This document shows positions 1 to 19,191 of a stretch of 64,000 nt of DNA, in pieces. A program made the position numbers and the translations under genes. Every line of letters begins with the position of its first letter. Positions within the stretch are counted from its first letter, which is position 1. Below the pieces are notes generated by a model. That model worked only from the letters and a program-made list of their open reading frames with translations, was not told the origin of the DNA and made no database searches. This stretch comes from an uncultured Balneolaceae bacterium (lineage in GTDB: Bacteria > Bacteroidota > Rhodothermia > Balneolales > Balneolaceae). The DNA lies in NCBI GenBank assembly GCA_964423345.1, contig CAYREV010000007.1, forward strand, positions 23,912 through 87,911, in the 5' to 3' direction.

Positions 1-1940
1 GGCTCATACCGGCGGTTAAGTATCTCTTTCCCGTCTACCACGATGCGAAGGCGTACGGCCGACCGCTCCCGGGAAATCCTGTTATCCGGCCGCCGCATAT
101 GGGGCAAGAGGTTCTCCTGGGAAGGTGCATCCTCAACGTTATTATCCACCGGCCGCCCGGGAAGCGTAAAGGATACCACCAGGCTCGAATCACTTTGAAC
201 CGGCAAGCTGTAGGGAGCCTTGCTAAAGAAGTAGGTCAGAAAACCCAGAACGGCTATCAGCGATAATCCCATTATATACCGGGCCGCTTTGCTTCCCCGA
301 GCCTTCGGCAGCTCCTGTTGCCCCCCATGCTCCCTGAAAGCACGGGCCTCCCGTATAAATGCCGCGGAATCCACCTGGTTAAAACGCAGATAACGAATGC
401 GGGAGGGGTCTGCCTTTTCACTTCTCAGCTCCGGATGCCTCGCCCCTTCCAGGCGCATGCCGGTCCACTTCGTCCCCAGCCTGAAGTCAGGTTCGCTCTG
501 GCAGCCGACAACCAGTACCCTCTCTGCTCCCTTTCTCAATACCCGCTCTATCATAAGCGGATGCACCCATCCCACACAGGGAACGGAGCGGACGATATAT
601 CCCGGCAGCTCTTTGCAACGGCCGGTTTCCTCATCAATTTGGAGCTCTGCCCCGGCCGAAGCCGAACAAATGTAGGCAACATATGCCGAGCCTTCCTCAT
701 CAAGCCTGTTTTCCAGCCATCCGTCCACTTCCCTTCGCACCTCGTTGGGCTGTAGCTGCGGAAAGGATATGCCCGCGGGGTCACAGGCCCCAACGCATAT
801 GCCGCAGGACATACACTTCGAGGGATCGATGGAGGCATAATAGTCACCTCTTTTGATATCTCCCTCTTCCCTGCGCAACATGGTCACAGCATTAAAGGGA
901 CAATCTTTATAACACTGTTCACACCCATTGCACAGTGAGGGGTCGACTTCAGGTTTCGGTGGCTCTTTTTTTACCAATAGCCAGGGTACGCTGATAAACC
1001 CAATAAAACCGACCAACAGTAACAGCCAGAGCATTCCGCCCTCCAGCCGGTCGGTGAAGTAAACGGGAATCATATAAAAATAATCGATGGGCATCGCCTC
1101 CTGCATTTCCAGCATGCGGGCGGGCTTGGTCAGGTCGGCAGGCAGCCAAACCGACATAATACAGAGTGAACCGGTCACGGCCCAGGTCATCGGTTTATTG
1201 GTAATAAAGTTAGCCTTGTTAAGCCGCGACACATGCAGCCACAAGGCAATTCCTATAGCCAGCGGTATCAGCATATGGAAGAAGAAAACCAGGAAAAACA
1301 GCAGGGAGTTGAAACTGTCGTCGGTCAGGAAGGAGCGGCTGAGCGGCTCGGCAAAAATCGGCAACTGGTCCAGCATCCGGGCAGTCCCCACCGCTACCTG
1401 GTTGGCCCTTTCATCCCAGACCAGCCAGTATCCCAGCCAGCCGTCAAACCAGAGTAATGCCACCGCCAGGATGCCGGTAACCCAGGCGAGCCACCTGCCT
1501 CCACCCAGGCGCTTGGCAAAAAACATTTTGAAGGCATGAAAAAGTATAAACAACATGCATGCATCCGAGCTGTAGCGGTGGAGGGCCCTGAAAAACTCCC
1601 CTGCCGGATTCATATGCAGCAGGGAATCGTAGGCCTGGTACACACTCGGCTTATACCATAACAGCAGGACAAATCCGGAGACCAGGGCAATCACAAAAGT
1701 AAGGTTGGCGATAGCACCCGACTGGGTAAAGGGGTTGAATGCGGGAGACAACACCTTTTCCACCCACTTGTCAAGCCGTTGAAACCACCGGTTACCGATA
1801 TTAAAAAACCATTCAGCCCGAACGGTCGACTCAGGGCACTGCTCTTTTACCCGGCTTTTATAGTCGCCGTTTTTTTTGAATGAGCTGTGGTCGCCTCCGG
1901 CCAGCTCCGCCAGATTAATTTCTTCAGTCAGGGTATTCAT
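1..1940 (-). CDS. Multidomain redox membrane protein, partial (C-terminus lies beyond the window edge): cytochrome b-type di-haem domain + 2x[4Fe-4S] ferredoxin domain + MvhD/FlpD-like domain + extra TM segment
   Basis: The minus-strand frame is open from the ATG at 1940 to position 1. It is absent from the ORF track because it has no in-window stop, so this is my own translation. 'FFRALHRYSSDACMLFILFHAFKMF..RWLAWVTGI' and 'FFFHMLIPLAIGIALWLH' give two His-x13-His pairs, as in cytochrome b helices B and D. 'CNGCEQCYKDCP' and 'CMSCGICVGAC' (about nt 960-800) are two CxxCxxCxxxC cluster motifs. 'YICSASAG...VPCVGWVHPLMIERVLRKGAERVLVVGCQ' resembles the MvhD/FlpD fold but with several Cys missing. 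The start overlaps the stop of the upstream SCO1-like gene (1924-1940). Confidence 0.7.
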   Translation of the reverse strand, partial: MNTLTEEINLAELAGGDHSSFKKNGDYKSRVKEQCPESTVRAEWFFNIGNRWFQRLDKWVEKVLSPAFNPFTQSGAIANLTFVIALVSGFVLLLWYKPSVYQAYDSLLHMNPAGEFFRALHRYSSDACMLFILFHAFKMFFAKRLGGGRWLAWVTGILAVALLWFDGWLGYWLVWDERANQVAVGTARMLDQLPIFAEPLSRSFLTDDSFNSLLFFLVFFFHMLIPLAIGIALWLHVSRLNKANFITNKPMTWAVTGSLCIMSVWLPADLTKPARMLEMQEAMPIDYFYMIPVYFTDRLEGGMLWLLLLVGFIGFISVPWLLVKKEPPKPEVDPSLCNGCEQCYKDCPFNAVTMLRREEGDIKRGDYYASIDPSKCMSCGICVGACDPAGISFPQLQPNEVRREVDGWLENRLDEEGSAYVAYICSASAGAELQIDEETGRCKELPGYIVRSVPCVGWVHPLMIERVLRKGAERVLVVGCQSEPDFRLGTKWTGMRLEGARHPELRSEKADPSRIRYLRFNQVDSAAFIREARAFREHGGQQELPKARGSKAARYIMGLSLIAVLGFLTYFFSKAPYSLPVQSDSSLVVSFTLPGRPVDNNVEDAPSQENLLPHMRRPDNRISRERSAVRLRIVVDGKEILNRRYE

Positions 1941-2937
1941 CTTTCAGATTGAGGTTTACAGAGTGGTTCAATGTCTTTTCCAACGGTGGGGCATCCTCTT
2001 GAACAAGCAGGCGTGTTGCTTTCAGCAGCCATTTCTGCTGTCGGTCTCCCAGCGTAAACCGGTAGGCTATGGTGCCATTTTTGTCAATGAGTATAAAGAG
2101 GTTCGCGTGGTCAATTGCCCCGTCTTCCCTTCTTATCCGGGGAATGTTAAGCTTGTCAAGGATCTCATTGATATATCCCGCTTCTCCCGTCAACAGATGC
2201 TGATTCGGTTCCGTCAACTCATAATGGTCGGCCGTCATTTTAAGCATGTCGGGAGTGTCTTTCGACGGATCCATGGTCAATGCCATCAGCTGTACCTGCC
2301 CGGCCTCCTTCTCGTTCAGTTCAGCAAGCACCTGTTTGGCCTGTTCCAGAATCAGGGGGCATGTTTCGGCACACGAGGCGTAAACCGCGGTAAGCATTAT
2401 CACATTCTCTCCCCTGTAATCGTCCAGCGAAATGTATTCCTTGTGCTGATTGACCAGCGTAAATGAGGGCGGACTAAATTCTGTCCTCAGGCTCTCGGCC
2501 GGAAACGGTAGTTCCCCTTCACTTTTCAACGAATAAAATGAGGGAAGGGTCAACCCCACGCCCAAAACTAAAACCAATGCCAGGCAGACAGCCGGCAAGG
2601 CAGGCGTCCACCCCTCTTTCAGTAAATCCGAGAGAGGGCGATACCAAAAAATTATTACAAACGTACTGAGGATGGCGGGCTGAACGATAAACATAGCCAG
2701 GTAGATAGACTCGATCTCACCCGTGGCCGGATCATAGCCCAGGCACCAGGTTTTAAACTCCTCGGCAAAAGCACCCAGGGTGGAACCGGAAACCGGGATC
2801 ATCGAAACCGCCAGAACCAGAACGGCAAAAAAGAACAGTACCGAAAGCATGAAAACGGGAAAGCGCCACGAGGAAAAGAAAGCTTCCAGGGAATATAGGA
2901 GATGCTTTGCCTGTTCTGTAGATGGGTCTTTCTTCAT
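1924..2937 (-). CDS. SCO1/SenC-family copper chaperone (thioredoxin fold) fused to an N-terminal polytopic membrane domain
   Basis: 337-aa ORF. The C-terminal half carries 'VIMLTAVYASCAETCPLILEQ' (the CxxxC motif of SCO1/SenC) and 'LMALTMDPSKDTP'. The N-terminal ~150 aa contain 3-4 hydrophobic helices. It lies directly downstream of HCO subunit I. Confidence 0.8.
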   Translation of the reverse strand: MKKDPSTEQAKHLLYSLEAFFSSWRFPVFMLSVLFFFAVLVLAVSMIPVSGSTLGAFAEEFKTWCLGYDPATGEIESIYLAMFIVQPAILSTFVIIFWYRPLSDLLKEGWTPALPAVCLALVLVLGVGLTLPSFYSLKSEGELPFPAESLRTEFSPPSFTLVNQHKEYISLDDYRGENVIMLTAVYASCAETCPLILEQAKQVLAELNEKEAGQVQLMALTMDPSKDTPDMLKMTADHYELTEPNQHLLTGEAGYINEILDKLNIPRIRREDGAIDHANLFILIDKNGTIAYRFTLGDRQQKWLLKATRLLVQEDAPPLEKTLNHSVNLNLKDEYPD

Positions 2938-3088
2938 AATAAATGCCTACTTTTTTTAATCAAGCTGATACAGCTAAAAACCCCTCCGGCCGGTACTACC
3001 GGCCAGAAGGTGATTTTAGTACTAATCCAACGTTTAGCTTACCGTAAGGGTATTATTCAGCAATTCCCCTCAACGGCACTCTACTTTG

Positions 3089-4816
3089 TCAACGAACGAA
3101 CCAAAGGTCAGCCAGGGCTTTCCAGTTGGCGAAATAGTAGATGGCGAAAGTCAACAGGAATATAATTACGACCGTCATGGTTCCGGGCGTTTTTACATGT
3201 TCGTAATCTTCGCCTTCCTCCTCATAGCCCTTCTCAATCAGCTCATCCTTCAGGCGGGTGGAATTTTCGTCCTGCCAGCTTTTCATCGGCTGTCCCTCAT
3301 TGGAACGTCCGAAGAACACCGCTGCAACCACCAGCCCGACAAAGAGCAGCAGGCCGAGGAATGCCAGTATCCCTCCAATTCCGACCAGCCCGAGCATGAC
3401 ATGGGCAATGGGATCAAAACCGGAATCAAGGATGGAGCCGCTGAAGTCGATATCATAGTGACGGCGCGGAACTCCATAGGAACCGGCGAACGACATACCC
3501 ATCGACATGATCACGATACCTCCTCCGAAAAGGTAGGGCTGTATGCGCGCCCACTTCTTAAGATAGAACTCGCGCTGGAATATGAGCGGCACCAGGTAGT
3601 AGGCCAGCCCCATGAAAGCGAGAGTGGTCCCTCCAACTACCGTTGCATGGAAGTGTCCGGGGATCCTGAGCGTGTTATGAGCAATAATATTGATCTGTTC
3701 GGTACCCAGCGTAACCCCGGTAATGCCTCCGATAAATCCGAAGATGACAATGGATAGCAGAATGGCCGAAAAGCCCGGGTCTTTCCATGGAAGTTTTGCG
3801 AACCATCCGAAAATACCCTTGGTAAAACCTTTACGGCGCTGTGCCACCTCAAGAGATGCGGGAACCGTATAGCCGTGAATCATGGAGGCCAATACCGCAA
3901 GATACATGGCATAGGAGGTGTTCCAGATTTTCCATCCGGCACCTACACCCGGATCCACCAGCAGGTGGTGGGCCGAAGCCAGGTTTATAAAAAGAATATA
4001 GAGCACGAAAGCCCCGCGGCAAACCGTTTGATTCAGGGGTTTGGCCCCCGTTGTCATCGTAGCCATGAAATACCAGACGGCAACCATGGCACAAACATTA
4101 ATCTGCTGTGACATATGTCCGAGTCCCCACCAGAGCAGGCGGTAAAGTCCGGGATCGTACGACTCGATCCACCCCATGGACCAGAAATAGGCGGGTACCA
4201 GGGCAGCCGCACCGTGAAGAAGCGCCAAAACCGCTATGATAGCCGCGGCGGCCGCACCGAAAGTTACCAGGGGCATCGAGCCCTCGTAGGTTTTATCCCG
4301 CTTGGCTATATAGAGGGTGGCAAAAAAGTTAAAACAGACAATCAATGCCCCGACGGCAAAGAGGATGATCCCCAGGTAAAAAAGCGGATGCGCTTTCAGC
4401 GGTACGTAGGACGTCATCAGCACATCGGCCTGTCCGGCAAGGATGATATAATTGGTCAATACCGCCCCAATAGTCATCAGCCCCAGTGAAAGGTGTGCCA
4501 GCTTTTTAGAAAACAGGCGACTGTTCAACAGGCTTGTGCTTGCGAAATAGAGGATGCCCATCTCCATGAAGATGATCCAGAAGACCAGCATATTGATCCC
4601 GTGGAAGGTCAACATACGGTAGTACCAGACGCTGTCGAGCAGGTGGACGGCCGTCCAGCGGGTCAGGGCCAAACCGATAGCGGCTATGGCGCCGAGCAGG
4701 AGAAAGACAACGGCTAATACGGCATTCGCCCGCACGAAATACTGTGCGTTTAGAAATACCCGAAGACCGGTAGTAGTACAGGTTCTGAACTTGGCTAAGG
4801 CTTGTGTAGCTTTCAT
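3089..4816 (-). CDS. Haem-copper oxidase superfamily subunit I, B-family (ba3)-like but lacking the cross-linked tyrosine; putative NO reductase of the eNOR/sNOR type
   Basis: 575-aa polytopic protein. Ligand set: His72 'LTFHGINM', His234 'WWGLGHMSQQ', His283/284 'SAHHLL', His388/390 'PGHFHA'. Gln238 sits at His+4, where ba3 has Tyr237. The gene lies next to a CuA subunit II and a SenC gene, in a nirK/azurin/Rrf2 context. Confidence 0.85.
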   Translation of the reverse strand: MKATQALAKFRTCTTTGLRVFLNAQYFVRANAVLAVVFLLLGAIAAIGLALTRWTAVHLLDSVWYYRMLTFHGINMLVFWIIFMEMGILYFASTSLLNSRLFSKKLAHLSLGLMTIGAVLTNYIILAGQADVLMTSYVPLKAHPLFYLGIILFAVGALIVCFNFFATLYIAKRDKTYEGSMPLVTFGAAAAAIIAVLALLHGAAALVPAYFWSMGWIESYDPGLYRLLWWGLGHMSQQINVCAMVAVWYFMATMTTGAKPLNQTVCRGAFVLYILFINLASAHHLLVDPGVGAGWKIWNTSYAMYLAVLASMIHGYTVPASLEVAQRRKGFTKGIFGWFAKLPWKDPGFSAILLSIVIFGFIGGITGVTLGTEQINIIAHNTLRIPGHFHATVVGGTTLAFMGLAYYLVPLIFQREFYLKKWARIQPYLFGGGIVIMSMGMSFAGSYGVPRRHYDIDFSGSILDSGFDPIAHVMLGLVGIGGILAFLGLLLFVGLVVAAVFFGRSNEGQPMKSWQDENSTRLKDELIEKGYEEEGEDYEHVKTPGTMTVVIIFLLTFAIYYFANWKALADLWFVR

Positions 4817-4836
4817 ATCATTAAAATGGTTTAGAT

Positions 4837-5361
4837 TTATTCGACAATGATTTTACCGGTCATCATATGGTGCCCGATGCCGCAAAATTCGTTACATATG
4901 ATATCAAAAGTCCCCGTAGTGGTGGGAGTCATGGTCAGCACATGATCGTAACCCGGAAGGATGTGGAAATTCATGTTCATCGGCAGCAGGGAGAAACCAT
5001 GCTGCAAATCGGGTGAAGAGATATGTATGCGATAGGTCTGATCTTTTTTAAGTTTCAGAACAGGATACCAGTTCCACATCTTTCCAACCAGGTAGGCATC
5101 TCCGCCCGGGGCGGGTTCAACGATAGGTATTCCATTCATCTCCCCCACCTTGTTTGTTTCAATGAATCGGTCGGTTCGATCCAGGAAAGCGGCGGCTTCC
5201 ACTCTATAGGATTCTCCCGTACTGTTTTGCTTCCCTTTGAAGTGCCAGTACGGCATGGTTACAGACATGACCAGACACCAGACTAAAGCCAGCCCGACCC
5301 AAAGGCGCTCGGTGCCGGTTGGGGCTTTAAACCAGTTTCCAACAGGATGAAAAATACTCAT
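4837..5361 (-). CDS. HCO subunit II, cupredoxin domain with intact CuA site, single N-terminal TM helix
   Basis: 174 aa. 'DLQHGFSL' plus 'FDIICNEFCGIGHHMMTGKIIVE' gives the H...CxxxCxxxHxxM CuA ligand pattern. It is very similar to ba3 subunit II 'CNQYCGLGHQNM'. It sits 20 nt upstream of subunit I. Confidence 0.85.
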   Translation of the reverse strand: MSIFHPVGNWFKAPTGTERLWVGLALVWCLVMSVTMPYWHFKGKQNSTGESYRVEAAAFLDRTDRFIETNKVGEMNGIPIVEPAPGGDAYLVGKMWNWYPVLKLKKDQTYRIHISSPDLQHGFSLLPMNMNFHILPGYDHVLTMTPTTTGTFDIICNEFCGIGHHMMTGKIIVE

Positions 5362-5390
5362 AATGTTATATCCGTTTTTTAGTTATTTGA

Positions 5391-5540
5391 TCAGGGTAGC
5401 GTGGCATCACCCATTGATATTAATTCGATGACACCCCAGAGGGTGTAGGAGATGATGGGAATCAGCAAGCCCAGGGCTAGCAACAGCCAGATGTTGTCCA
5501 GGAACCGCTGTCCTAATGGTTTTTCTTCTTCTGATTTCAT
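5391..5540 (-). CDS. Small (49 aa) single-TM peptide, positional analogue of ba3 subunit IIa
   Basis: My own translation, since it is below the ORF-track size cut-off: 'MKSEEEKPLGQRFLDNIWLLLALGLLIPIISYTLWGVIELISMGDATLP'. It has one hydrophobic helix and fills the gap between the HCO paralogue and subunit II. The order small-II-I matches cbaD-cbaB-cbaA of Thermus. Confidence 0.4.
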   Translation of the reverse strand: MKSEEEKPLGQRFLDNIWLLLALGLLIPIISYTLWGVIELISMGDATLP

Positions 5541-5554
5541 AACGATTATTGTTT

Positions 5555-6988
5555 TTATGTTTGAGGGTACATTCGCTTATTCTTCCAGGCCTTGACCATG
5601 ATCCAGAGAAACAGCAGGCCCCCGGAAACGGCCAGCAGTCCGCCGATAGTCATAATCCCCAGGCCCGCAAATACTTCTATAGAATCGATCTGCTGTTCGG
5701 AACCGAACGATTTTCTGGCCAGTCCGTGGTATCCCGCATAACCGAAACCGGCGGCAAACAGCGCCTGCCCGAATCCAAACAGCAGGGGTTGTATAGCGGC
5801 AAGCTTCCTGCTCCGCCCCCCGGGCAGCCGTATGTCGTGTATCTCCAGCAACAGGTAGGTTACGGCCATAAATGCTACGGTTATCCCTCCCACGGCTGCA
5901 TGGTAGTGGGCCGGAATAAGGGTGTTGGAACCGTTGATCATCGCCCCGAGAATAAAACCGATGGAGGTAAGCAGCATACTGGTGACCAATCCGCCGAAAT
6001 AGGGATTTTTCAACAATCTGCCGGGCAGCTCGCCCTTGCGGCGGGCCCGTACCAAAACGACGATGATCAGAACCATAAAAACCGTGACTACGGGGAATAT
6101 GCCCCATTGCATATACCGGGTAAAACCGGAATGGTATAGCATGTTGGAAGTCCCTTTCATCGTGAGCAGCGGGGCTGCCAACACCGGGAGCGTAAAAAGG
6201 GCAAACAGGATGGCCGACCATCGATAGGGTATGGGATTTCTTTTAAGCAATTTGCCCAACAGGATAATCCACACCGACAGCATGGCTGCCACATTCACAA
6301 ACTGAAGCAGGTGCCCCCCTCCCCAGATGGTCAGCTCGTAGTAGGTTTGATCTGACAGGGTTTGGGGTGTGGCAAGCCAGGAACCGAAGAAGGTTACAAA
6401 GCTGACAATCAGCAGAATGGCCGCCGATCGAAAACCGGGCAAAGAGGAATCAGGAAACGCCCTTTCCATAGGGCGGCCGCTCGGAATGGCTGAAATACGG
6501 GAGTTCAAAACCGTACACAATACCCCGGCACCGAATATTAAGAGACCCCCGATAAAAAGAGGATGGTCGAGGACCGGTATATAATTGGACAAGACCGGTT
6601 CCACCCCGGATACAAATATGGAACTGACCACCATGCCCACTCCCGTGACCGCCAAAGCGTATCCCAGCGGGAGCAGCCTGTTGCTTTTCCCGGCGGCGGG
6701 TACCAATACAAAGAGTCCGCACAGAAATGCATATATCCAGATCAGCAGGGCCAGGTCTACATGGACCACGAGTCCCCTCTTGGCAAAAAGAGGGTCAGAA
6801 ATCAGCTCACTGATGAAAGGTGCCCTTGCCAGGACAATGATTATCGAAAACAGGCCCGACAGAAGCAGGGTCCCTATACTCAGGAAAATCCAAAGCCGGG
6901 AGAGGGTCTTTGACTCAATCCCGGCATGATCAACCCAGGACGCTACCGGGAACATTAATATTTTTTTTACCGCTGCTAACAATAGCAA
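5555..6988 (-). CDS. Divergent HCO subunit-I paralogue that retains the haem ligands but lacks the CuB His-His pair
   Basis: 477 aa. It is clearly paralogous to the 575-aa subunit I: 'NYIPVLDHPLFIGGLLIFGAGVLC' vs 'SYVPLKAHPLFYLGIILFAVGALI'; 'WGGGHLLQFVNV' vs 'WWGLGHMSQQINV'; 'IPAHYHAAVGG' vs 'IPGHFHATVVGG'. The helix VII segment 'LFALFTLPVLAAPLLTM' aligns with 'LYILFINLASAHHLLVD', so HH is replaced by AP. The track start is TTG at 6988; an in-frame ATG lies at 6955. Confidence 0.75.
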   Translation of the reverse strand: MLLLAAVKKILMFPVASWVDHAGIESKTLSRLWIFLSIGTLLLSGLFSIIIVLARAPFISELISDPLFAKRGLVVHVDLALLIWIYAFLCGLFVLVPAAGKSNRLLPLGYALAVTGVGMVVSSIFVSGVEPVLSNYIPVLDHPLFIGGLLIFGAGVLCTVLNSRISAIPSGRPMERAFPDSSLPGFRSAAILLIVSFVTFFGSWLATPQTLSDQTYYELTIWGGGHLLQFVNVAAMLSVWIILLGKLLKRNPIPYRWSAILFALFTLPVLAAPLLTMKGTSNMLYHSGFTRYMQWGIFPVVTVFMVLIIVVLVRARRKGELPGRLLKNPYFGGLVTSMLLTSIGFILGAMINGSNTLIPAHYHAAVGGITVAFMAVTYLLLEIHDIRLPGGRSRKLAAIQPLLFGFGQALFAAGFGYAGYHGLARKSFGSEQQIDSIEVFAGLGIMTIGGLLAVSGGLLFLWIMVKAWKNKRMYPQT

Positions 6989-7006
6989 TCACCATCCTTT
7001 GTTTTC

Positions 7007-7059
7007 AATAGAGCTCTTTGTCTATTATCTATATTTTTCAATAGAGTTACAAGTCTATT
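7007..7059. promoter_or_regulatory. Two direct copies of an operator-like palindrome AATAGA-N8-TCTATT in the divergent HCO-operon / Rrf2 promoter region
   Basis: 'TTTTCAATAGAGCTCTTTGTCTATTA' (arms at 7007-7012 and 7021-7026) and 'TTTTCAATAGAGTTACAAGTCTATTA' (arms at 7040-7045 and 7054-7059). The copies are 33 bp apart and lie 19-71 bp upstream of the HCO-paralogue start. A related TATAGA-N8-TCTATA is found in front of nirK. Confidence 0.4.
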
Positions 7060-7319: not shown

Positions 7320-7760
7320 ATGCATTTACCCCAGACTGCAGAATACGCCCTCAGGGCGATGGCATGTATCGCCCTGAAAAAAGATGAACGCCCGGTAACA
7401 TCGAAGGTACTGGCAGAGGCTACAAACATTCCCAGTCATTACCTGTCCAAAATCATGCGGAAAATGGTTGAAGCAGATCTTGTTACATCAAAAAAAGGAC
7501 ATGGCGGCGGTTTCCAACTGGCCCAATCGCCCGGGGATATCACCTTCAGGATGATCCTGGAGACGGTAGATTATGAAATAGAACCGGAAAGCTGTGTATT
7601 CGGATGGGAAAAGTGCAACAACGATGATCCCTGCCCCCTGCACAATACCTGGAGCCAGCTCAAGGATTCCTTTCACTGGTGGGCCGAAAACGTGACCCTT
7701 CAGGACGTTATAGACCACCCCGGGGAAACCGAACTTATCTTAACTCCCGGCAACGACTGA
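7320..7760 (+). CDS. Rrf2-family transcriptional regulator with three-Cys Fe-S motif (NsrR-like)
   Basis: 'MHLPQTAEYALRAMACIAL', 'IPSHYLSKIMRKMVEADLVTSKKGHGGGFQLA' (winged helix), and 'CVFGWEKCNNDDPCPLH' (three clustered Cys). It is divergent from the HCO operon and close to nirK. Confidence 0.85.
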   Translation: MHLPQTAEYALRAMACIALKKDERPVTSKVLAEATNIPSHYLSKIMRKMVEADLVTSKKGHGGGFQLAQSPGDITFRMILETVDYEIEPESCVFGWEKCNNDDPCPLHNTWSQLKDSFHWWAENVTLQDVIDHPGETELILTPGND

Positions 7761-7789: not shown

Positions 7790-8287
7790 ATGAACCTGTA
7801 CTACCTTTCCGTCTTTATCCACATAGTATCGGCAATCTTCTGGATTGGGGGCATGCTGTTTACCGCAGCCGTACTGGTGCCCGCCTCCCGTGATAAGCTC
7901 CTGAGAAATAAAAAGGGAGCCTTTTTTACGCTTGTGGGGGTCAAATTCAGCAGGCTGTCATGGATCTTGTTTGCTGTTTTATTCATTACGGGAATAACCA
8001 ACCTGCTGGCCCGCGGCTTTCACCTGCAGGACTTTGTGTCGGCACCATTCTGGCAGAGCGGGCTCGGAGATGCCCTGGCTGTCAAACTGCATCTGTTTGC
8101 GGTTGTACTGGTAATAAGTGGCATTCATGATTTCTATGCCGGACCAAAGGCGGCCGAACTCATTGACCGGTCCCCCGGCAAACCGGAGACTCGCCGATTC
8201 CGTAAGCTGTCCAGCTGGCTGGGCCGCATCAACCTGTTACTGGGACTGGCAATCCTGTATTACGCCATGAAAATGGTCCGCGGTTAG
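7790..8287 (+). CDS. CopD-family-like four-TM membrane protein
   Basis: 165 aa with four hydrophobic helices. The N-terminal 'FIHIVSAIFWIGGMLF' motif resembles the CopD/HemJ-type 'H..aa..W.GG' helix. It lies 29 nt downstream of the Rrf2 gene and is probably co-transcribed. Confidence 0.45.
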   Translation: MNLYYLSVFIHIVSAIFWIGGMLFTAAVLVPASRDKLLRNKKGAFFTLVGVKFSRLSWILFAVLFITGITNLLARGFHLQDFVSAPFWQSGLGDALAVKLHLFAVVLVISGIHDFYAGPKAAELIDRSPGKPETRRFRKLSSWLGRINLLLGLAILYYAMKMVRG

Positions 8288-8304: not shown

Positions 8305-9567
8305 TTACTTCACAAACTGCGGATGGATGGAGAGCATCACCCAAGCCCAGGACTGAAGTCCGTCGGCATCCACACCGCGAAGCGTTTCCATTGATCCGGA
8401 AGGCGAAAGCAGGGAATATCCCACCTTCAGGGAAATATCCGAACTGAAGCTATGCGCCAGGCTGAAATCAATTTCGGAACCCAATCCTTTTTCCAGGATT
8501 TCGCCGGGCACCGTCGGGTTCACCGCCGCTTCCGCCAGTGCAAAATAGTGGTAGGTCAGTGATATGTTGGACGCTGATCCCCTTTTGTACACGGCCTGCA
8601 CATACAGGTCCTGAAGTCCCCCGAAACGGCTGTCGGCCGGCACGTTCAGGAAATAATCCATATGCCCGTAGAACTTGTGGTTGGTGGCATACAAGGTGTT
8701 AAAGGCGTGGCGGCGTGGATTGGGGTCGTCGGCCCCTCCTCCCGAGAGGTAATCGTAGCCGGCAGACAGGTGGAATGCATCCAGCTCATATCCGGCTTTT
8801 ACCGCATACATATAGGCCCTTATATTTTCCCTTGTGGCATCATCCCCGCTTTGAAGGTAAACGGTCCCTGTTGTATGAATTCCGTTAAGCCGGTACTGGA
8901 GATGGGTCCCGTAGGTATAGCGAAACTTGACCGATCCCGACGGCCGTTCAAAACCATCGGTTATTCCGATAAAGGATGCCTGGAAGTTTTCCCACTTTTT
9001 TTGCAGCCATATATATGTCAGGACCTTGTAGTTTTTAAGCGTATACGTATTACCCAGCAGGTTTTGTGCCTCCTGGTTATAGGCTCCTCCCAGGTCCAGG
9101 CTAAGCCTGCCATCCCCCTTGCGAAGCTTCAACACCAGGGCATCATGGCTGCGTCCCTGCTGGGTCCAGTTGACACTTCCCAAGAGGCGCTGGTCGTCAT
9201 AGATCAATTCCTGGCGGCCCATTTTGATTGCTGATGCATCGGCTACCTTTACCTCTGCCCATGCTTCGTGAACATTCACATTGGGTGTGTCCCCAAGCTG
9301 TTCTACTTCCCCCCAGACCCTTACATCCTGGCCGGACAGTTTTATTTTGTACAGTTCCGTTTGATACCGGAGGCTCAGGCGCGCCCGTTGGGATATAAAA
9401 AATGCCGGCTCCACATCGGCGGTTTTCATAATCCTGTACCCGTTACGATATTCAGATCGGGGCCTGAACTCCCCCTCCACACTCAATTGAGCCTTTGTGG
9501 TGGCAGGTAAAACCATCAGTAAACAGCAAAGAACAAATAAACGGCTAACGGCTTTGTAAAAATTCAT
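8305..9567 (-). CDS. Outer-membrane beta-barrel porin (alginate-export-family-like)
   Basis: 420 aa with signal peptide 'LLMVLPATTKAQ'. The N-terminal 'EGEFRPRSEYRNGYR' motif and alternating beta-strand pattern resemble Alginate_exp-type porins, which are often found next to N-oxide genes. Confidence 0.5.
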   Translation of the reverse strand: MNFYKAVSRLFVLCCLLMVLPATTKAQLSVEGEFRPRSEYRNGYRIMKTADVEPAFFISQRARLSLRYQTELYKIKLSGQDVRVWGEVEQLGDTPNVNVHEAWAEVKVADASAIKMGRQELIYDDQRLLGSVNWTQQGRSHDALVLKLRKGDGRLSLDLGGAYNQEAQNLLGNTYTLKNYKVLTYIWLQKKWENFQASFIGITDGFERPSGSVKFRYTYGTHLQYRLNGIHTTGTVYLQSGDDATRENIRAYMYAVKAGYELDAFHLSAGYDYLSGGGADDPNPRRHAFNTLYATNHKFYGHMDYFLNVPADSRFGGLQDLYVQAVYKRGSASNISLTYHYFALAEAAVNPTVPGEILEKGLGSEIDFSLAHSFSSDISLKVGYSLLSPSGSMETLRGVDADGLQSWAWVMLSIHPQFVK

Positions 9568-9671: not shown

Positions 9672-10151
9672 CTAAGTTGCCTCCCTTTTTACAGTCAGGA
9701 TACCTTTCATACCGCCCGAATAGTGGCCCGGGAAGGTACAGATGTATTCGTACTCGCCCGGTTTGTCGGGAGCCGTAAAGGTAACCTCTACGGTTTCCCC
9801 TCCTCCGGCCAGGCCGGTATAGGCCAGGATCTGGTCCTCCATATCCGGTGCGATATATTCGTTGTCGGATGCTCGTGCCGAGGCGATAGCCACAGCAGTT
9901 GCATCCGCATCGGATTCCAGAAGAACGAAGTTGTGGGCCATAGCCACTTTCGGAAAGTCGCTGACCGTAGTCAGTTTAACGATGACCTTCTGGCCCGGCA
10001 GGACTTCGATATTAGTGACCGTAAACTTCAACTGGTTGGTTCCCTCCATTTCGATGACTTTGACGGCCGGGTTATCGGCCAGCCCGACCTGGGCTATTAA
10101 CAGCATCGGTAACAGGAGTAACAGTGATTTTATTTTTTTGATCGTTTCCAT
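9672..10151 (-). CDS. Azurin-like blue copper protein (cupredoxin), secreted
   Basis: Signal peptide, 'AMAHNFVLL' (His ligand), and 'YICTFPGHYSGGMKGILTV' (Cys-x2-Pro-Gly-His-x4-Met, as in azurin 'CTFPGHSALMKG'). Confidence 0.85.
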   Translation of the reverse strand: METIKKIKSLLLLLPMLLIAQVGLADNPAVKVIEMEGTNQLKFTVTNIEVLPGQKVIVKLTTVSDFPKVAMAHNFVLLESDADATAVAIASARASDNEYIAPDMEDQILAYTGLAGGGETVEVTFTAPDKPGEYEYICTFPGHYSGGMKGILTVKREAT

Positions 10152-10200: not shown

Positions 10201-11331
10201 TTACTTGATGTCGGCATCAAAGATGTCCGGGCGTTTCTTGCCTTCCACATTGATGATACCGAGCATGCCTTTATGGGCAACCCTGCTGAGGGCGTGGTCG
10301 ACCAGCTTGACCGGTCCGGGTACGGGGAAATCCATTTCAAAGATGCCGCAGCTTCCCGGTGCCACATGGCAGGTTTGCACATATCGTTCCGGCTTGCTGG
10401 CAATGGCCCCTTCTCTCCAGGCTTTGGTGAATACATTGCCGATGGGGTGGAAATTGCTGGTCACATTCGGCCCGCCGGTAACCAGGTAGATACGCGCGGT
10501 CTCGCCGGTTTTGACATTGAGCGCTCCATACCGGTTGTCGGTGATGGCCTGGGATTCGCCGTTCAGCAGTACATAATTTGGATTTTCATCGATCATGGCC
10601 TGCGTATTGAAAAGGTGCATACCCTTCTCTCCCGCTTCCCTGTTGGTATATACCTCGTGCTGTCCGAAGTAGAACTCGTGATCTACCGGGGGAAGACCCT
10701 CTTCGGGCTCTACCAGTATCATGCCGAACATTCCGCTGCTGATGTGGTAGTCCATGCGTGGGACCGCACAGTGATAGATGAAGGCTCCGGGGTACATCGC
10801 CTTGAATTTCAGCTTGGTGGATTGGCCGGGAGGGCACAGGGTGGCTTCGGCTCCTCCGCCGGGGCCATAAACCGCGTGGAAGTCCACGTTGTGAATCATG
10901 GTATTTTCAGAGAGGTTCTTATGGGTCAATATTACCGTATCGCCCTGGCGTACACGCACCATGGGGCCGGGTACCTGCCCGTTGTATGTGAGATACTTGA
11001 ACTTGACGCCGTCTTCGATTTCGGCGATGACCTCCCGGCTTTCGAGCGTGATCTCATGGATTTTGGGCTTTCGGCGCTTGATCGGCCCGGGGATGTCGGT
11101 AGGATCGGCGGCAACCCGCTGAACCGTGGGAATATTTAGCATGGAAGCCGGGGTGAAATCGCCCGCCTTGCCAACTTCTTTGGCCTGCCCCACCTTGGGG
11201 AACCCCATGCCGGCCAGGAACCCGCCTGAGAGCAGGGCCGCGCCCGTGTTTCTCAGAAACCTTTTTCGAGACTGGGTAGGCTTGTCGTTAACGGCAGTGA
11301 TTTGATCGGAAGTATAATTTTTGCTTTCCAT
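10201..11331 (-). CDS. nirK: Copper-containing nitrite reductase NirK with Tat signal
   Basis: 'RKRFLRNTGAALLSGGFLAGMG' twin-arginine leader; 'HNVDFHAVYGPGGGA' and 'YHCAVPRMDYHISSGMFG' type-1/type-2 Cu ligand motifs; 376 aa two-cupredoxin size. Confidence 0.92.
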   Translation of the reverse strand: MESKNYTSDQITAVNDKPTQSRKRFLRNTGAALLSGGFLAGMGFPKVGQAKEVGKAGDFTPASMLNIPTVQRVAADPTDIPGPIKRRKPKIHEITLESREVIAEIEDGVKFKYLTYNGQVPGPMVRVRQGDTVILTHKNLSENTMIHNVDFHAVYGPGGGAEATLCPPGQSTKLKFKAMYPGAFIYHCAVPRMDYHISSGMFGMILVEPEEGLPPVDHEFYFGQHEVYTNREAGEKGMHLFNTQAMIDENPNYVLLNGESQAITDNRYGALNVKTGETARIYLVTGGPNVTSNFHPIGNVFTKAWREGAIASKPERYVQTCHVAPGSCGIFEMDFPVPGPVKLVDHALSRVAHKGMLGIINVEGKKRPDIFDADIK

Positions 11332-11355: not shown

Positions 11356-11375
11356 TATAGATTTAATTGTCTATA
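11356..11375. promoter_or_regulatory. Operator-like palindrome TATAGA-N8-TCTATA between the putative nirK promoter and the nirK start
   Basis: It has the same architecture (6-bp arms, 8-bp spacer, ATAGA/TCTAT core) as the two sites at 7007-7059. It lies 25-45 bp upstream of the nirK ATG. Confidence 0.35.
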
Positions 11376-11399
11376 GATAATTTTGTCTACTAATAGTAA

Positions 11400-11768: not shown

Positions 11769-13859
11769 ATGGACATGAATGGCCCAAATTCCGCTCCCGA
11801 AAAACGATGGTCCCGTCCCCTTGTGATCCTCGTATCGGCGTTTCTGCTGTTTGAAACCATTACCGGCCTGCTGATATACTTTCTTCCGTTCAGTATCAGC
11901 AACCAGATGATGATCCTTGTCCACACCGGCATTGGGATCGCATTCTGTATCCCCTACCTGGTGTACCAGGTACAACACTGGCTCAGTCAGCGCCAACGAC
12001 CGCTCAGTGAAATCAAGCTTACAGGGTACATCTCCATGTTCGCTGCCCTGGCAGCCGTCATATCGGGACTGGTCCTTACATGGCAGGCCCTGTTTGAAGT
12101 CCGTATCAGCTATACATGGGACAAGATCCACCTGTTCTCTACTTATGTGCTGCTGGCCTCACTGCTACCACATATTGTGCTCATTGTCATACGCGACTAC
12201 AAGGCACGCAACAATCCGGTGATGAAACCGGTGATCGAATCCGAAAAGAATTTCGGCATAAGCAACCTCTTTGCCGTGCTTGCACAATTTGCGCTGGTAT
12301 TACTGCTTATATATGCTTTTGAGCCGACTCCCGTCGATAATAGCCTTCCCGAAGATTACCACTATACGGACGAAAGCGGCGACCGGCCCTTTGCGCCCAG
12401 CCTGGCAACCACCGAAAACGGCGAGGGCATCGATGACCTGCTGCTGGGAAAATCGGAAACATGCAGCAGTTCGGGATGCCACGAACAGATCGGAAAAGAG
12501 TGGGAGGCCAGCGCTCACCGCTACTCGGCTATGGACCCGGCTTTCCGGGCCGTCCAGACCGCCATGGGTAATCAGGAGGGACCCATGTCTACCCGTTATT
12601 GCGGTGGTTGCCACGATCCCATCTCCCTGTTTTCCGGAACCAAGAACCTGTTCAGCGACAGCCTGACCAATAAGATGGGCATGGACGAAGGGGTCTCCTG
12701 TGTCTCCTGCCATGCCATCAAGCAGGTGGATGTATCAGGAAATGCCGATTATGTGATTGCACCGCCCGAACGCTATATCTTTGAACTGAAAGACGGTAAG
12801 ATGGCCAAACTGATCAGTGATTTTCTGATTAGGGCCTACCCCCAGAAACATATCGACACCTTCCAGCGGCCACTGCTGAAAACTCCGGAATTCTGCGGAT
12901 CCTGTCATAAACAGTTTATAGACGAAGAGATCAATAACGTCGGATGGGTACAACTGCAGAACCAATACGACAATTGGCGTAAGAGCCGGTGGAATCATCC
13001 CAAAGAACCCACAAAAACCATTCAGTGCCGGGAATGCCATATGCCCCTCACAGATTCCTTTGATCCTGCCAGCGGGGACGATTTGGATTACAACCGTACC
13101 AAGGACGACGGGAAGCACCGGGACCATCGATTCCTCGGAGCCAACCAGCTGATACCCACCCTGCTGGACCTGCCGGGAGCCGAAGAGCACGTCAAACTCA
13201 CCGAAAAATGGCTAAGGGGTGAAATAGAGATTCCGGAAATCGCCGACAAATGGCGAACCGGGCCCGCAGTGCCCATCAACATTGTTGCTCCGAGAGAGAT
13301 AACCGCAGGCAATGACCTTGAGATAAGCATTGTCATAAGCAACAACAAAACAGGACACCACTTCCCCACCGGACCGCTCGATATCATTCAATCCTGGCTG
13401 GAGATTGTGGTGACAGATCAGGATGGAAACGAGATATTCACTTCCGGAACCCTGGACGAAAATAATTTTATCGAACCCGGCTCCTTTATTTTTAAAGCCG
13501 AACCGGTAGACCAGTACAATAATGTTATCGACCGGCACAACCTATGGGAAATGGTGGGCGTACGATACAGCCGGGCCCTCTATCCCGGCCATTCCGATAA
13601 CGCCGACTTCCGGATACCCCTGCCCGATTCACTGGGCCGGAAAAGCAGTGTTTCCATGAACATACCGGGCGACAAGCTCAACACCGATAAACACCAAACC
13701 ATTTTGAATATCAGTGCCCGTCTTCAGTACCGGAAAATAAATCAATACCTGATGAATGCGGTTTTCGGCAATACCTACGACAACCCCACCGCCACTGTTA
13801 CTACGATTTCAAGCGACCGGGCCGATGTAACCGTACTGAAAACAGACGCAACCTATTAG
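11769..13859 (+). CDS. Membrane-anchored multihaem cytochrome c (N-terminal ~5-TM domain + periplasmic domain with five haem-binding motifs)
   Basis: 696 aa. The N-terminal ~190 aa hold five hydrophobic helices with several His. Haem motifs are 'CSSSGCH' (CX4CH), 'CGGCH', 'CVSCH', 'CGSCH' and 'CRECH'. Confidence 0.8.
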   Translation: MDMNGPNSAPEKRWSRPLVILVSAFLLFETITGLLIYFLPFSISNQMMILVHTGIGIAFCIPYLVYQVQHWLSQRQRPLSEIKLTGYISMFAALAAVISGLVLTWQALFEVRISYTWDKIHLFSTYVLLASLLPHIVLIVIRDYKARNNPVMKPVIESEKNFGISNLFAVLAQFALVLLLIYAFEPTPVDNSLPEDYHYTDESGDRPFAPSLATTENGEGIDDLLLGKSETCSSSGCHEQIGKEWEASAHRYSAMDPAFRAVQTAMGNQEGPMSTRYCGGCHDPISLFSGTKNLFSDSLTNKMGMDEGVSCVSCHAIKQVDVSGNADYVIAPPERYIFELKDGKMAKLISDFLIRAYPQKHIDTFQRPLLKTPEFCGSCHKQFIDEEINNVGWVQLQNQYDNWRKSRWNHPKEPTKTIQCRECHMPLTDSFDPASGDDLDYNRTKDDGKHRDHRFLGANQLIPTLLDLPGAEEHVKLTEKWLRGEIEIPEIADKWRTGPAVPINIVAPREITAGNDLEISIVISNNKTGHHFPTGPLDIIQSWLEIVVTDQDGNEIFTSGTLDENNFIEPGSFIFKAEPVDQYNNVIDRHNLWEMVGVRYSRALYPGHSDNADFRIPLPDSLGRKSSVSMNIPGDKLNTDKHQTILNISARLQYRKINQYLMNAVFGNTYDNPTATVTTISSDRADVTVLKTDATY

Positions 13860-17236: not shown

Positions 17237-18583
17237 ATGGAATATTACCGGAAATTTATCTCTTCTGTGGAATCGCTATATTTTCGAGGTGGTTTGCCAA
17301 CCTCACAAAATATAAACAGGGCCAAGGAGCACAAGATGGCAAGCGGGATAACATCCACTAACTCTCTTAAGCACGATCCCTTGTGGTCGGTTACCTTCGC
17401 CTGCTTTATGCTGGCAGCCCTAACGGGCTCCCTCTACCGCTACGGCATGATCGGCACCCTCCCCTGGGAATTGAGCCTCGACAATATTCGCCATGCACAT
17501 TCCCATCTTATGTTCTTCTCCTGGGCCGCCCCCCTCCCTCTCTATATATTCCTGCTAAAAATGAAGGGATGGGTCAACAGCCGGGATACCGCCATTCGAT
17601 GGATGAAAATATCTCTTTGGGCCTGCCTGGCTTTTGGACTTATATCCTACCCATTTTTTCTACTATACGGCTATCATCCGGTGCCGGTCGGTTCCTCGTC
17701 CCTTCCCCTGTCGGTTATCATGTCCGGCATGGTCATGCTCTCATGGTACCTCTACATGGGTAGTTATCTTACTCTAAGAAAAAAGTTGAGCAACCGAACC
17801 AAACCGTGGATGGAAGCTTCCATGTTCATGCTTTTTATCTGTTCACTTGGGGCATGGGGCGTTGCCCTGGTACAGGCACTGTTTCCGGAAGCCCATTTAA
17901 TGATGAAAGGGCTGACGCATTTTTTTCTTGCGGCTTTTACAGAAGGGTGGGTGGTTCTGGCCCTGCTCTCGATGCTGCTTGATGCCCTACCGCTGGATAA
18001 GCGCGCGCTTCCCCTATCCCAGCATACCCTTATCGGCATGATCGCCATAGGTGCACCCCTGACATTTCCCTATGGTATTTCTGAAACCCTTTTGTCTCCC
18101 CTCCTGCTGGTTGTTGCCCGTTTTGGGGGACTGGTTATTGCCACCGCTTTGCTCACCCTTCTTTACGGTATGTTTAAGTCGGCAACATGGGAAAAATCCC
18201 TTTGGAAATGGGTTCTCGGATTGCTTCTGCTCAAGGCCCTAATGCAGCTCAGTGCCTCCCTCCTGCCCTCCGGCTTCTGGCTTTCGGAACCTACGTTCCG
18301 GGTGTTGTACCTCCATCTGCTCCTGCTCGGGGCATTCACATTGGGCATGGTAGGATGGCTTCATCATAATTCAGAAGCACCCGACAGGCCCTATACCTTA
18401 TTTGCCTGGACTGTAGCTATTTTATTGGTCAGCCTGGTCACACTGAGCCCACTATGGCCCGGTTCCTGGAGAGGCATGTGGATTTTCTATTTTGTTTGGG
18501 GCGCTACCCTGCTGCCGGTATTAGCCCTTGCCTATGAATGGATAACCTTAAAAGTAACATACGGGGATACTTCGCATGAGTGA
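17237..18583 (+). CDS. Polytopic membrane protein with conserved His motifs (NnrS-like or HCO-helix-like; function unknown)
   Basis: 448 aa with about 12 hydrophobic helices. Motifs: 'RHAHSHLMFFSWAAP', 'LTHFFLAAFTEGW', 'LYLHLLLLGAFTLGMVGW'. The true start is probably the internal Met at 17336 ('MASGITS'). It lies 12 nt after the OsmC gene. Confidence 0.6.
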   Translation: MEYYRKFISSVESLYFRGGLPTSQNINRAKEHKMASGITSTNSLKHDPLWSVTFACFMLAALTGSLYRYGMIGTLPWELSLDNIRHAHSHLMFFSWAAPLPLYIFLLKMKGWVNSRDTAIRWMKISLWACLAFGLISYPFFLLYGYHPVPVGSSSLPLSVIMSGMVMLSWYLYMGSYLTLRKKLSNRTKPWMEASMFMLFICSLGAWGVALVQALFPEAHLMMKGLTHFFLAAFTEGWVVLALLSMLLDALPLDKRALPLSQHTLIGMIAIGAPLTFPYGISETLLSPLLLVVARFGGLVIATALLTLLYGMFKSATWEKSLWKWVLGLLLLKALMQLSASLLPSGFWLSEPTFRVLYLHLLLLGAFTLGMVGWLHHNSEAPDRPYTLFAWTVAILLVSLVTLSPLWPGSWRGMWIFYFVWGATLLPVLALAYEWITLKVTYGDTSHE

Positions 18584-18683
18584 TATCAGAAATGAAGAGG
18601 ATATCAGTAAACTGGTTCACACCTTCTATCAAAAGGTGCAAAAAGATAGCTGCAACGGGAAGGCAAACTTGAAGAATAAATAA
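18576..18683 (+). pseudogene. Possible remnant of a truncated-haemoglobin (trHb group II/III) gene, N-terminal 25-35 codons only
   Basis: My own translation: 'MSDIRNEEDISKLVHTFYQKVQKDSCNGKANLKNK*'. The 'I..LV..FY.KV.KD' segment matches the conserved N-terminal helix of trHbs (for example 'IAKLMEIFYEKVRKD'). The reading frame then stops, and no continuation exists in the other frames. Confidence 0.3.
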
Positions 18684-18718
18684 TATGAAGAGAATTAAAA
18701 CCCACTAGATGAATTGAC

Positions 18719-19162: not shown

Positions 19163-19191
19163 TTCATTCATAACCTCTAAAATATTCACTC

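Follow-up and report, generated by a model that had tools for sequence, protein, structure and literature searches.

We analysed a 64,000 nucleotide stretch (the window) of contig CAYREV010000007.1 from an uncultured Balneolaceae bacterium, in which six co-directional genes on the minus strand, called g1 to g6 here, span positions 1-6988. The locus probably encodes a nitrite-to-N2O module under one Rrf2-type regulator that is itself likely to respond to nitric oxide (NO). By their sequences, g2, g3 and g4 belong to the eNOR family of NO reductases, and neither to sNOR nor to the ba3 oxidases; g5, g6 and g1 would be accessories. The new element of the locus is the family of g1, a haem-copper oxidase (HCO) subunit I paralogue without a metal-B site, and the frequent joining of this family to the eNOR operon.

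Catalytic core of the operon

The core was assigned to eNOR because g4 has six histidine ligands and a Gln at the tyrosine site and clusters with Gln-signature enzymes, and because the CuA ligands of g3 are intact. The product of g4 matched Pfam COX1 with 238 bits, and its best solved relative was subunit I of the Thermus thermophilus ba3 oxidase (E 1e-45). The metal-ligand histidines H72, H234, H283, H284, H388 and H390 align with the ba3 ligands. In the multiple alignment the column of the cross-link Tyr237 of ba3 is occupied by Gln238 in g4, with Gln237 preceding it. The GH-x2-QQ motif of g4 is invariant in 24 relatives, and GH-x2-QQ-x-N is also found in subunit I from a Defluviimonas plasmid, Thermus thermophilus plasmids and the Thermomicrobium roseum megaplasmid. 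The residue at the Tyr site is diagnostic: Gln in eNOR, Asn in sNOR, Glu in cNOR/qNOR and Tyr in oxidases (PMC8756737, Table A4). In a neighbour-joining tree, Gln-signature enzymes from Defluviimonas, Thermus and Thermomicrobium formed a group with g4 and its relatives, separate from ba3 and a Tyr-bearing haloarchaeal (Halogeometricum) oxidase. The residues S311, H314 and T317 of g4 are invariant and align with S309, T312 and T315 of the ba3 K-channel, and identity of g4 across phyla is 62-91%. An N-terminal cytoplasmic motif, R-T-C-x-T-T-G-L, was also observed at residues 11-18 of g4 (window 4770-4790); its Arg11 and Cys13 are invariant in eNOR subunit I, and it is recognisable in Thermus (ERTCPATGL) and Defluviimonas (YRICRFSGL).

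The original prediction noted correctly that g4 lacks the cross-linked Tyr and that g3 is a CuA subunit II, but it likened the catalytic part to sNOR and eNOR/sNOR-type families, which the Gln signature narrows to eNOR. The II-I-SenC-extra-ORF order (ORF, open reading frame) resembles the norSY-senC-orf1 arrangement reported for sNOR operons. The alternatives, an sNOR operon with this arrangement or an ordinary oxygen reductase operon of the ba3 type (B family), can draw on that gene order and on the ba3 enzyme being the best solved relative of g4, yet both are contradicted by Gln238 in the active site, by the grouping of g4 away from Tyr-bearing B-family oxidases and by the operator in common with nirK described below; we consider either highly improbable. 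The Asn of sNOR is replaced by Gln in g4 and by Phe in g1, and neither protein has the helix VI Tyr that forms the His-Tyr cross-link of ba3-type enzymes. The gNOR type, with Asp for a metal-B His and a subunit II without CuA ligands, also differs, since g4 has three metal-B His, g3 has the full CuA set and g1 has Ala-Pro, with no Asp, in place of its His-His pair. In the NCBIfam scan g4 scored far under every oxidase cut-off.

The product of g3 matched Pfam COX2 with 23.5 bits and the ba3 CuA domain with an E value of 1.6e-11 (3e-11 for the solved ba3 structure), and its CuA ligands (H...CxExCx3Hx2M; H...CNEFCGIGHHMM) are kept in 72 loci. The 49-residue peptide of g2 has the motif FLDN-WLLL-LG..P...Y..WG, which is kept in 67 loci and in the Defluviimonas and Thermus eNOR operons. 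It had been called IIa-like; a conserved small peptide of the expected size and position is indeed present, but no ba3 IIa (CbaD) chain in PDB matched it even at E <= 10, so that the likeness is one of size and position only.

Hemp and Gennis reportedly treated the eNOR family of haem-copper NO reductases in 2008. Its member from Rhodothermus marinus DSM 4252 has been characterised biochemically (Murali et al. 2024, PMC11214002): it reduces NO and not O2 and contains haem A(s), and gel electrophoresis of the purified active enzyme shows two subunits (PMC11214002; bioRxiv version). Homology to this enzyme makes NO reduction by g2-g4 a well-founded prediction. As in g2-g4, eNORs have six His ligands, Gln for Tyr, K-channel-like residues, a CuA subunit II directly upstream of subunit I, a small transmembrane peptide before subunit II and a poorly conserved C-terminal stretch. 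The Thermus eNOR locus further resembles the window in having an Rrf2 gene nearby, and in its subunit I the low-spin ligands are His/Lys, a variant noted by Murali et al. in some eNORs. The operon of the window differs from the family as described in being prefixed by the metal-B-less g1 and in including no CtaA or haem O synthase gene. No eNOR structure was found in the literature; the closest solved structure for g4, g3 and the g1 model is T. thermophilus ba3 (B family; PDB 1EHK, 1XME). It resembles the window core in its 13-helix subunit I, CuA site and single K-type channel, but ba3 has a His-Tyr cofactor and reduces O2, whereas g4 has Gln at that place, g1 is without two CuB ligands and g2 is not detectably related to IIa.

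The g1 paralogue and conservation of the gene order

The product of g1 is a true homologue of HCO subunit I. It matched Pfam COX1 with 55 bits, and an hhalign comparison with the g4 family gave a probability of 99.8% over 433 columns. The AlphaFold (AF2) model (predicted local distance difference test score, pLDDT, 88; predicted template modelling score, pTM, 0.90) has 13 helices and found ba3 subunit I as its best structural match, with a TM-score of 0.72. The low-spin haem ligand H76, the helix-X pair H361/H363, the first metal-B ligand H226, the helix-VI Trp and the haem-propionate pair R425/K426 are all kept. The helix VII His-His pair, in contrast, is Ala-Pro in g1, as the original prediction had noticed, and was found in none of 135 family representatives (clusters at 50% identity, some only about 31% identical to g1). 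In the family the pair reads A/S/G-P, with Pro at the second position in 110 of the representatives. The haem ligands and the Arg/Lys pair are invariant across these representatives. The Tyr/Gln column holds Phe, Val or Leu in the family, Gln229 (equivalent to Q237 of g4) is kept, and E218, Q229, T290 and M293 are invariant residues of the family's own. In the K-channel region the alignments differ by one residue, and T290 and M293 may fill the first two channel positions.

Since two of the three metal-B His are lost, g1 cannot be a binuclear-centre NO reductase or oxidase, and we regard it as a degenerate duplicate of eNOR subunit I that would still bind two haems. The neighbour-joining tree places the g1 family as the sister group of the eNOR clade, and the simplest reading is that a subunit I of the eNOR lineage was duplicated and then lost its metal-B site. 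The family is large, with 429 clusters (50% identity) at E <= 1e-30 among 1.84 billion representatives, and a scan of species genomes turned up relatives in no fewer than 589. NCBIfam has no curated family for g1, g2, g5 or g6, and members of the g1 family are named cbb3-type oxidase subunit I or hypothetical protein in their sources. No match to g1 was found among plasmids by tblastn.

The six-gene order, whose absence from related genomes would have counted against the original prediction, extends far beyond them. The 80 best g1 loci were searched by tblastn with the window proteins, and 59 of them had at least 6 kb downstream of g1. In 51 of these 59 informative loci, from eight or more phyla, g3, g4, g5 and g6 follow g1 in the same order and on the same strand. 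Of these 51 loci, 46 gave a match to g2 and 27 have a divergent Rrf2 gene. Hosts of the full block include Balneolaceae, Myxococcota/Polyangia, Planctomycetota, Verrucomicrobiota, Spirochaetia, Fibrobacteria, Gemmatimonadota and Calditrichota, with median identities to the window proteins of 67% for g4, 69% for g3, 43% for g6 and 41% for g5. Two loci reached independently through g4 (Leptospiraceae and Acidobacteria) have the same six genes.

Both g1 and g6 are nevertheless separable modules, and the cytochrome b/Fe-S gene accompanies eNOR without g1. In a Rhodothermales metagenome-assembled genome (MAG), used as a proxy for the R. marinus operon (subunit I 71% identical), an Rrf2 gene adjoins an operon of small subunit, II, I, SCO and cytochrome b/Fe-S genes without g1. 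The Defluviimonas plasmid operon likewise has no g1 and runs small subunit-II-I-cyoE-SCO-cytochrome b/Fe-S-172-residue protein-hemerythrin, while the eNOR loci of Thermus and Thermomicrobium have neither g1 nor g6. Conversely, a relative of g1 is monocistronic in Fodinibius sediminis, and others stand outside an eNOR block, beside SCO and A-type COX1/COX3 genes (locus L027) or beside a cytochrome c gene (L058 and L077). The g1-like ORF of L058 (9359-11311, Planctomycetota) encodes 650 residues with an N-terminal extension, and the cytochrome c gene follows it. A complete deltaproteobacterial MAG chromosome (L002/L019; CP070734.1, 290-311 kb) has g1-g2-g3 in a neighbourhood that includes nirS, a divergently oriented Rrf2 gene and a nap-like cluster, with a Mut7-C fragment after g3. 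The Defluviimonas operon ends with its hemerythrin gene (L083, 13544-13948), and that of the Rhodothermales MAG with a gene for a 421-residue membrane protein (L090, 9095-10360) without a Pfam match. The latter was considered as a relocated g1 and rejected (E 1.8, no Pfam match).

A 2026 preprint on Ferrigenium straubiae describes an operon for eNOR II and I, a haem O synthase, Sco1, cytochrome b/[Fe-S] proteins and a functionally unassigned protein termed "eNOR scaffold protein"; it records all of them in a proteome and calls the core eNOR arrangement common (10.64898/2026.01.22.701106). Ferrigenium and the Defluviimonas plasmid (NZ_CP156080) agree with the window in the series II-I-(haem O synthase)-Sco1-cytochrome b/[Fe-S], after which comes a small protein without an assigned function, but both loci are without g1. 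The Defluviimonas cytochrome b/Fe-S/MvhD gene is 30% identical to g6; its 172-residue protein is separate, whereas the counterpart is fused into g6 in the window, and one Ferrigenium cytochrome b protein carries FAD and NADH domains, unlike g6. The combination of genes had been thought undescribed. Core, SCO and cytochrome b/Fe-S gene together are in fact a common eNOR layout, but no description of a metal-B-less HCO paralogue in eNOR operons was found in the literature.

Operator, regulator and neighbouring genes

The operon was predicted to lie behind an operator-bearing promoter, and two copies of the palindrome ATAGA-N8-TCTAT, overlapping sigma-70-like hexamers, were found upstream of g1 (Table 1). 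Only three exact copies exist in the 64 kb, two before g1 and one before nirK. With up to one mismatch there are seven, against 1.29 expected, and none of 100 shuffles reached seven. Fodinibius halophilus (L001) has the same layout at both promoters, with the nirK copy at 6127-6160. Among 39 Rrf2-g1 intergenic regions, ATAGA-N8-TCTAT was the most frequent and enriched palindrome, and in 11 of the 39 the arms are conserved while the spacers vary. Conserved arms with free spacers are found in Balneolaceae, and the palindrome is also present in one Fibrobacteria and one Gemmatimonadota locus. Because the operator is common to nirK and the eNOR operon, a function in nitrogen oxide metabolism has independent support. 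The substrate had been predicted to be NO or another nitrogen oxide, to which the Gln signature and this operator both point.

A 331-nt intergenic region parts g1 from a divergent Rrf2 gene, whose product scored 115 bits against the superfamily model (cut-off 73) and has the C-x7-C-x5-C motif typical of cluster-binding members. Three cluster Cys and an operator before NO-metabolism genes are NsrR-like features, and both are found here, with palindromes at g1 and nirK in two genomes. The label NsrR itself, used in the original prediction, is not supported by the model scores: the protein gave 35.4 bits against the NsrR equivalog NF008240 (cut-off 182). The Rrf2 protein is likely to be an NO-responsive repressor, and we infer a single Rrf2-controlled regulon of nirK-cupredoxin-porin and the eNOR operon.

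Table 1. Features of the eNOR and nirK region, in window positions
Feature	Position	Strand	Size	Description
g6	1-1940	-		Cytochrome b + 2x[4Fe-4S] ferredoxin + FlpD/MvhD-like + C-terminal transmembrane helix + beta-sandwich
g5	1924-2937	-	337 aa	SCO1/SenC CuA-assembly protein with N-terminal three-transmembrane domain
Hairpin + T-run	2982-3010	-	13 bp stem	9 GC pairs; within the 151-nt g4-g5 gap
g4	3089-4816	-	575 aa	eNOR subunit I, catalytic subunit
g3	4837-5361	-	174 aa	eNOR subunit II, CuA site
g2	5391-5540	-	49 aa	Single-transmembrane peptide, small subunit of eNOR operons
g1	5555-6988	-	477 aa	eNOR subunit I paralogue; two haem sites, no metal-B site
Two palindromes ATAGA-N8-TCTAT	7008-7025, 7041-7058			33 bp apart; 20-70 nt upstream of g1 start
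Rrf2-family regulator	7320-7760	+		Pfam Rrf2 118 bits; TIGR00738 115 bits, above cut-off
CopD/DUF4149-like four-transmembrane membrane protein	7790-8287	+		Pfam CopD 38.9 bits; directly 3' of the Rrf2 gene
Outer-membrane porin	8305-9567	-		Alginate-export/Porin_4 type (Pfam); last gene of nirK string
Azurin-like type-1 cupredoxin	9672-10151	-		Signal peptide; Pfam Copper-bind 56.5 bits; C-x4-H-x4-M ligands visible
nirK, copper nitrite reductase	10201-11331	-		TIGR02376 388 bits (cut-off 296)
nirK palindromes	11357-11374, 11373-11390			Exact and one mismatch, respectively; 26-59 nt upstream of nirK start

The gene identities originally proposed are correct, and Pfam confirmed the domains proposed for g1 and g3 to g6, including the cytochrome b, di-cluster ferredoxin and MvhD-like fusion of g6, which has a C-terminal transmembrane helix and beta-sandwich in addition. 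The window start truncates g6, with 646 of its 715 codons inside; its complete product, P0241, agrees with the part inside the window at 100% identity. The genes had been described as tightly spaced or overlapping, which holds for the spacings of 14, 29, 20 and -17 nt (the negative value being the g5/g6 overlap) but not for the 151 nt between g4 and g5. The strong hairpin in that gap may act as an attenuator or stabilise the transcript. L001, L003 and L016 have hairpins of -25 to -32 kcal/mol at the same place; in most other phyla the distance between g4 and g5 is 0-30 nt, or the two genes overlap, and there is no hairpin. The hairpin was rejected as a general operon divider, being confined to close Balneolaceae relatives.

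The nirK gene lies on the strand opposite to the Rrf2 and CopD-like genes. The azurin model TIGR02695 gave the cupredoxin 67.7 bits, under its cut-off of 105. The porin gene is conserved in F. halophilus. The Rrf2-CopD pair was also observed in L003, L005 and L006/L085, and it persists where g1 stands alone in F. sediminis. GC content is 50-56% across the genes without a sharp break, and a horizontal-transfer island was rejected on composition; the word island describes gene content only. Divergent from nirK is a gene for a 696-residue multihaem cytochrome c (11769-13859, plus strand) with weak Cytochrome_C554/MtrC-like and ExtKL matches, after which come FG-GAP/ASPIC and TPR proteins; all of these are absent at the F. 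halophilus locus. Farther away, a 138-residue ORF (19192-19608, plus strand) matched the N-terminal part of Pfam COX1 with 33 bits, just below the cut-off, and is preceded by ORFs of 448 and 147 residues (17237-18583 and 18719-19162) without Pfam or NCBIfam matches. Together, these ORFs (17237-19608) could represent a further HCO-like set, fragmentary or split, some 12 kb away from the operon.

Probable accessory proteins and the proposed working of the module

The product of g5 matched Pfam SCO1-SenC (PF02630) with 68 bits (cut-off 22.8), the domain following a membrane domain of about 150 residues. We take it from knowledge of the family to be a CuA assembly factor. Its CxxxCP and DH motifs are kept in 59 loci, and Cys65 of the N-terminal domain (F-x3-F-x2-W-C) is nearly invariant. 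This last motif (WCLGYDPATGE) lies at window 2740-2760, residues ~57-70, and a similar motif, CTVYNPLTGAYRFDY, was observed in the SCO protein of the Defluviimonas eNOR operon (L083, 10608-11432), but there in a C-terminal membrane domain. The Cys-containing membrane domain may be a mobile module on eNOR-associated Sco proteins.

The product of g6 matched Pfam Cytochrome_B (59.6 bits), Fer4 with two clusters, and FlpD (32.4 bits; PF02662 cut-off 22.3). Its haem-ligand His, in the H-x13-H pairs H121/H135 and H222/H236, are invariant in 32 sequences, as are the eight cluster Cys, while in the MvhD-like part, a domain type in which Cys ligate a [2Fe-2S] cluster, only C425, C455 and C480 (plus H460) are conserved. 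In the AF2 model (pLDDT 83) the N-terminal 300 or so residues form a membrane domain of six helices, for which bc1 cytochrome b is a structural match, and the remainder consists of a cytoplasmic Fe-S part followed by a transmembrane helix and the C-terminal beta-sandwich. Residues 47-506 match the cytochrome b fusion of the Defluviimonas eNOR operon (E 5e-76), and residues 582-677 match the separate 172-residue gene that follows it. Membrane dihaem cytochrome b and a cytoplasmic Fe-S protein also make up modules of the DsrMK/HmeCD type, which link the quinone pool to a cytoplasmic partner. The cytochrome b of g6 is, however, of the bc1/b6 type and not of the NarI type, and all its parts are in one chain; the Fe-S part resembles the ferredoxin and MvhD tail of HdrA2 (NF040770, 62 bits, far below cut-off).

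In several phyla g6 is accompanied by genes for eNOR, Sco and haem O synthase. Table S6 of the Ferrigenium preprint gives proteome values of 26.2 and 23.9 for the two cytochrome b-like proteins, 24.7 for Sco1 and 31.6 for eNOR I and II (10.64898/2026.01.22.701106). Because of these levels, the company of Sco, haem O synthase and hemerythrin genes, the two-subunit R. marinus enzyme and the Balneolaceae hairpin, which separates g1-g4 from g5-g6, we weakly favour a role of g6 in biogenesis over one in turnover. A redox module for eNOR biogenesis, for example in the conversion of haem O to haem A(s) at low O2, is accordingly our leading, though tentative, candidate. Electron supply by quinol oxidation is a serious alternative of lower probability, and a different role altogether is somewhat less probable again.

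For g1, the role we find most plausible, without considering it established, is that of a non-catalytic, haem-bearing partner (pseudo-subunit) of haem-copper complexes. A haem scaffold and an NO-binding protein are equally possible and each less probable, and some other role is improbable. For the scaffold, NifEN and NifDK offer an analogy: NifEN, a paralogous scaffold encoded in the same cluster, retains the fold and some of the cofactor sites, while ligands needed for catalysis are missing. The families are unrelated, and the likeness is an analogy only.

The original prediction saw the six products as one composite enzyme. This is not supported for all six, g5 being an assembly factor and g1 and g6 being separable. 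A narrower version, in which g1-g4 and g6 form one supercomplex and the cytochrome b/Fe-S protein feeds electrons through the g1 haems to the eNOR core, would take its input from quinol or a cytoplasmic low-potential donor and make NO reduction free of soluble carriers. It fits with g1 retaining both haem sites and the propionate-binding pair, and with g6 combining a transmembrane dihaem wire with cytoplasmic clusters; the order and co-directionality of the genes in 51 of 59 loci from many phyla, often with very short gaps or overlaps, agree with it, and the Ferrigenium authors propose a supercomplex for their own cytochrome b/Fe-S genes. We nevertheless hold it unlikely, as g1 and g6 each occur without the other, the CuA entry site of eNOR is intact and a cupredoxin gene adjoins, the R. 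marinus enzyme shows activity as a two-subunit preparation, and the one proteome available suggests that the cytochrome b-like proteins are far less abundant than both eNOR subunits. That g1 and g6 are stoichiometric subunits of a self-contained membrane machine, with the cytochrome b/Fe-S protein drawing on a quinol or ferredoxin-level donor and g1 wiring the electrons to the NO centre, we judge improbable.

Several points do weigh against our reading of the locus as an NO-reducing module with g1 and g6 as accessories. A stoichiometric g1 subunit would fit the strict order g1-g2-g3-g4 over eight or more phyla, as well as the location of g1 together with the structural genes on their side of the hairpin, and CP070734, with g1-g2-g3 but without g4-g6 beside nirS and Rrf2, would fit g1 and subunit II as an enzyme of their own. 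The sample behind the count of 51 in 59 is biased, the 80 loci having been ranked by similarity to g1; the tree is small, carries no support values and includes no sNOR, gNOR, nNOR or bNOR references; and the Ferrigenium values have unknown units, come from n = 1 and belong to a different organism. The NO reductase activity of g2-g4 is a prediction from homology, the Rrf2 protein falls below the cut-off of the NsrR hidden Markov model, and its pairing with the palindromes is likewise deduced from sequence.

In another reading, g1 is an independent haem-only protein, co-regulated with eNOR but separate, which might bind or buffer NO, act as a sensor or carry out an undescribed reaction at its His-ligated high-spin haem. 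The g1-g2-g3 set without g4 in CP070734, the monocistronic relatives in F. sediminis, the relatives beside cytochrome c or SCO and A-type oxidase genes, and the invariant E218, Q229, T290 and M293 speak for it. The stand-alone copies, however, have no evident donor or partner, all known HCO-type nitrogen oxide enzymes retain the metal-B site, and 51 of 59 sampled copies are joined to the eNOR operon. We consider this reading, too, rather unlikely.

In the nitrite-to-N2O module that we prefer, NirK would make NO in the periplasm and the azurin-like cupredoxin would be the probable periplasmic electron donor. The eNOR of g2, g3 and g4 would reduce 2 NO to N2O, with electrons passing from CuA to the low-spin haem and on to the high-spin haem/metal-B centre and protons being taken up from the cytoplasm through the K-channel-like path of S311, H314 and T317. 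As the protons would come from the cytoplasm, this step is probably electrogenic. The Sco chaperone g5 would load CuA, and as accessories g1, g5 and g6 would add no new catalytic chemistry.

One rule for annotation follows: a COX1 match in which Ala, Ser or Gly followed by Pro replaces the His-His pair is not an oxidase. The eNORs are estimated to be among the commonest NO reductases in nature, and hence a source of N2O, but have been studied only as the two-subunit core, which Balneolaceae, Myxococcota, Planctomycetota, Verrucomicrobiota, Spirochaetia, Acidobacteria and others encode together with g1-type and g6-type extras. If these extras are assembly factors, they would bear on the maturation of haem A enzymes under near-anoxic denitrifying conditions. 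Should they be subunits, denitrification in those organisms would have bioenergetics different from those of current models, and the self-contained machine, if true, would give respiratory NO reduction a new architecture in hundreds of species, with the first pseudo-catalytic HCO subunit.

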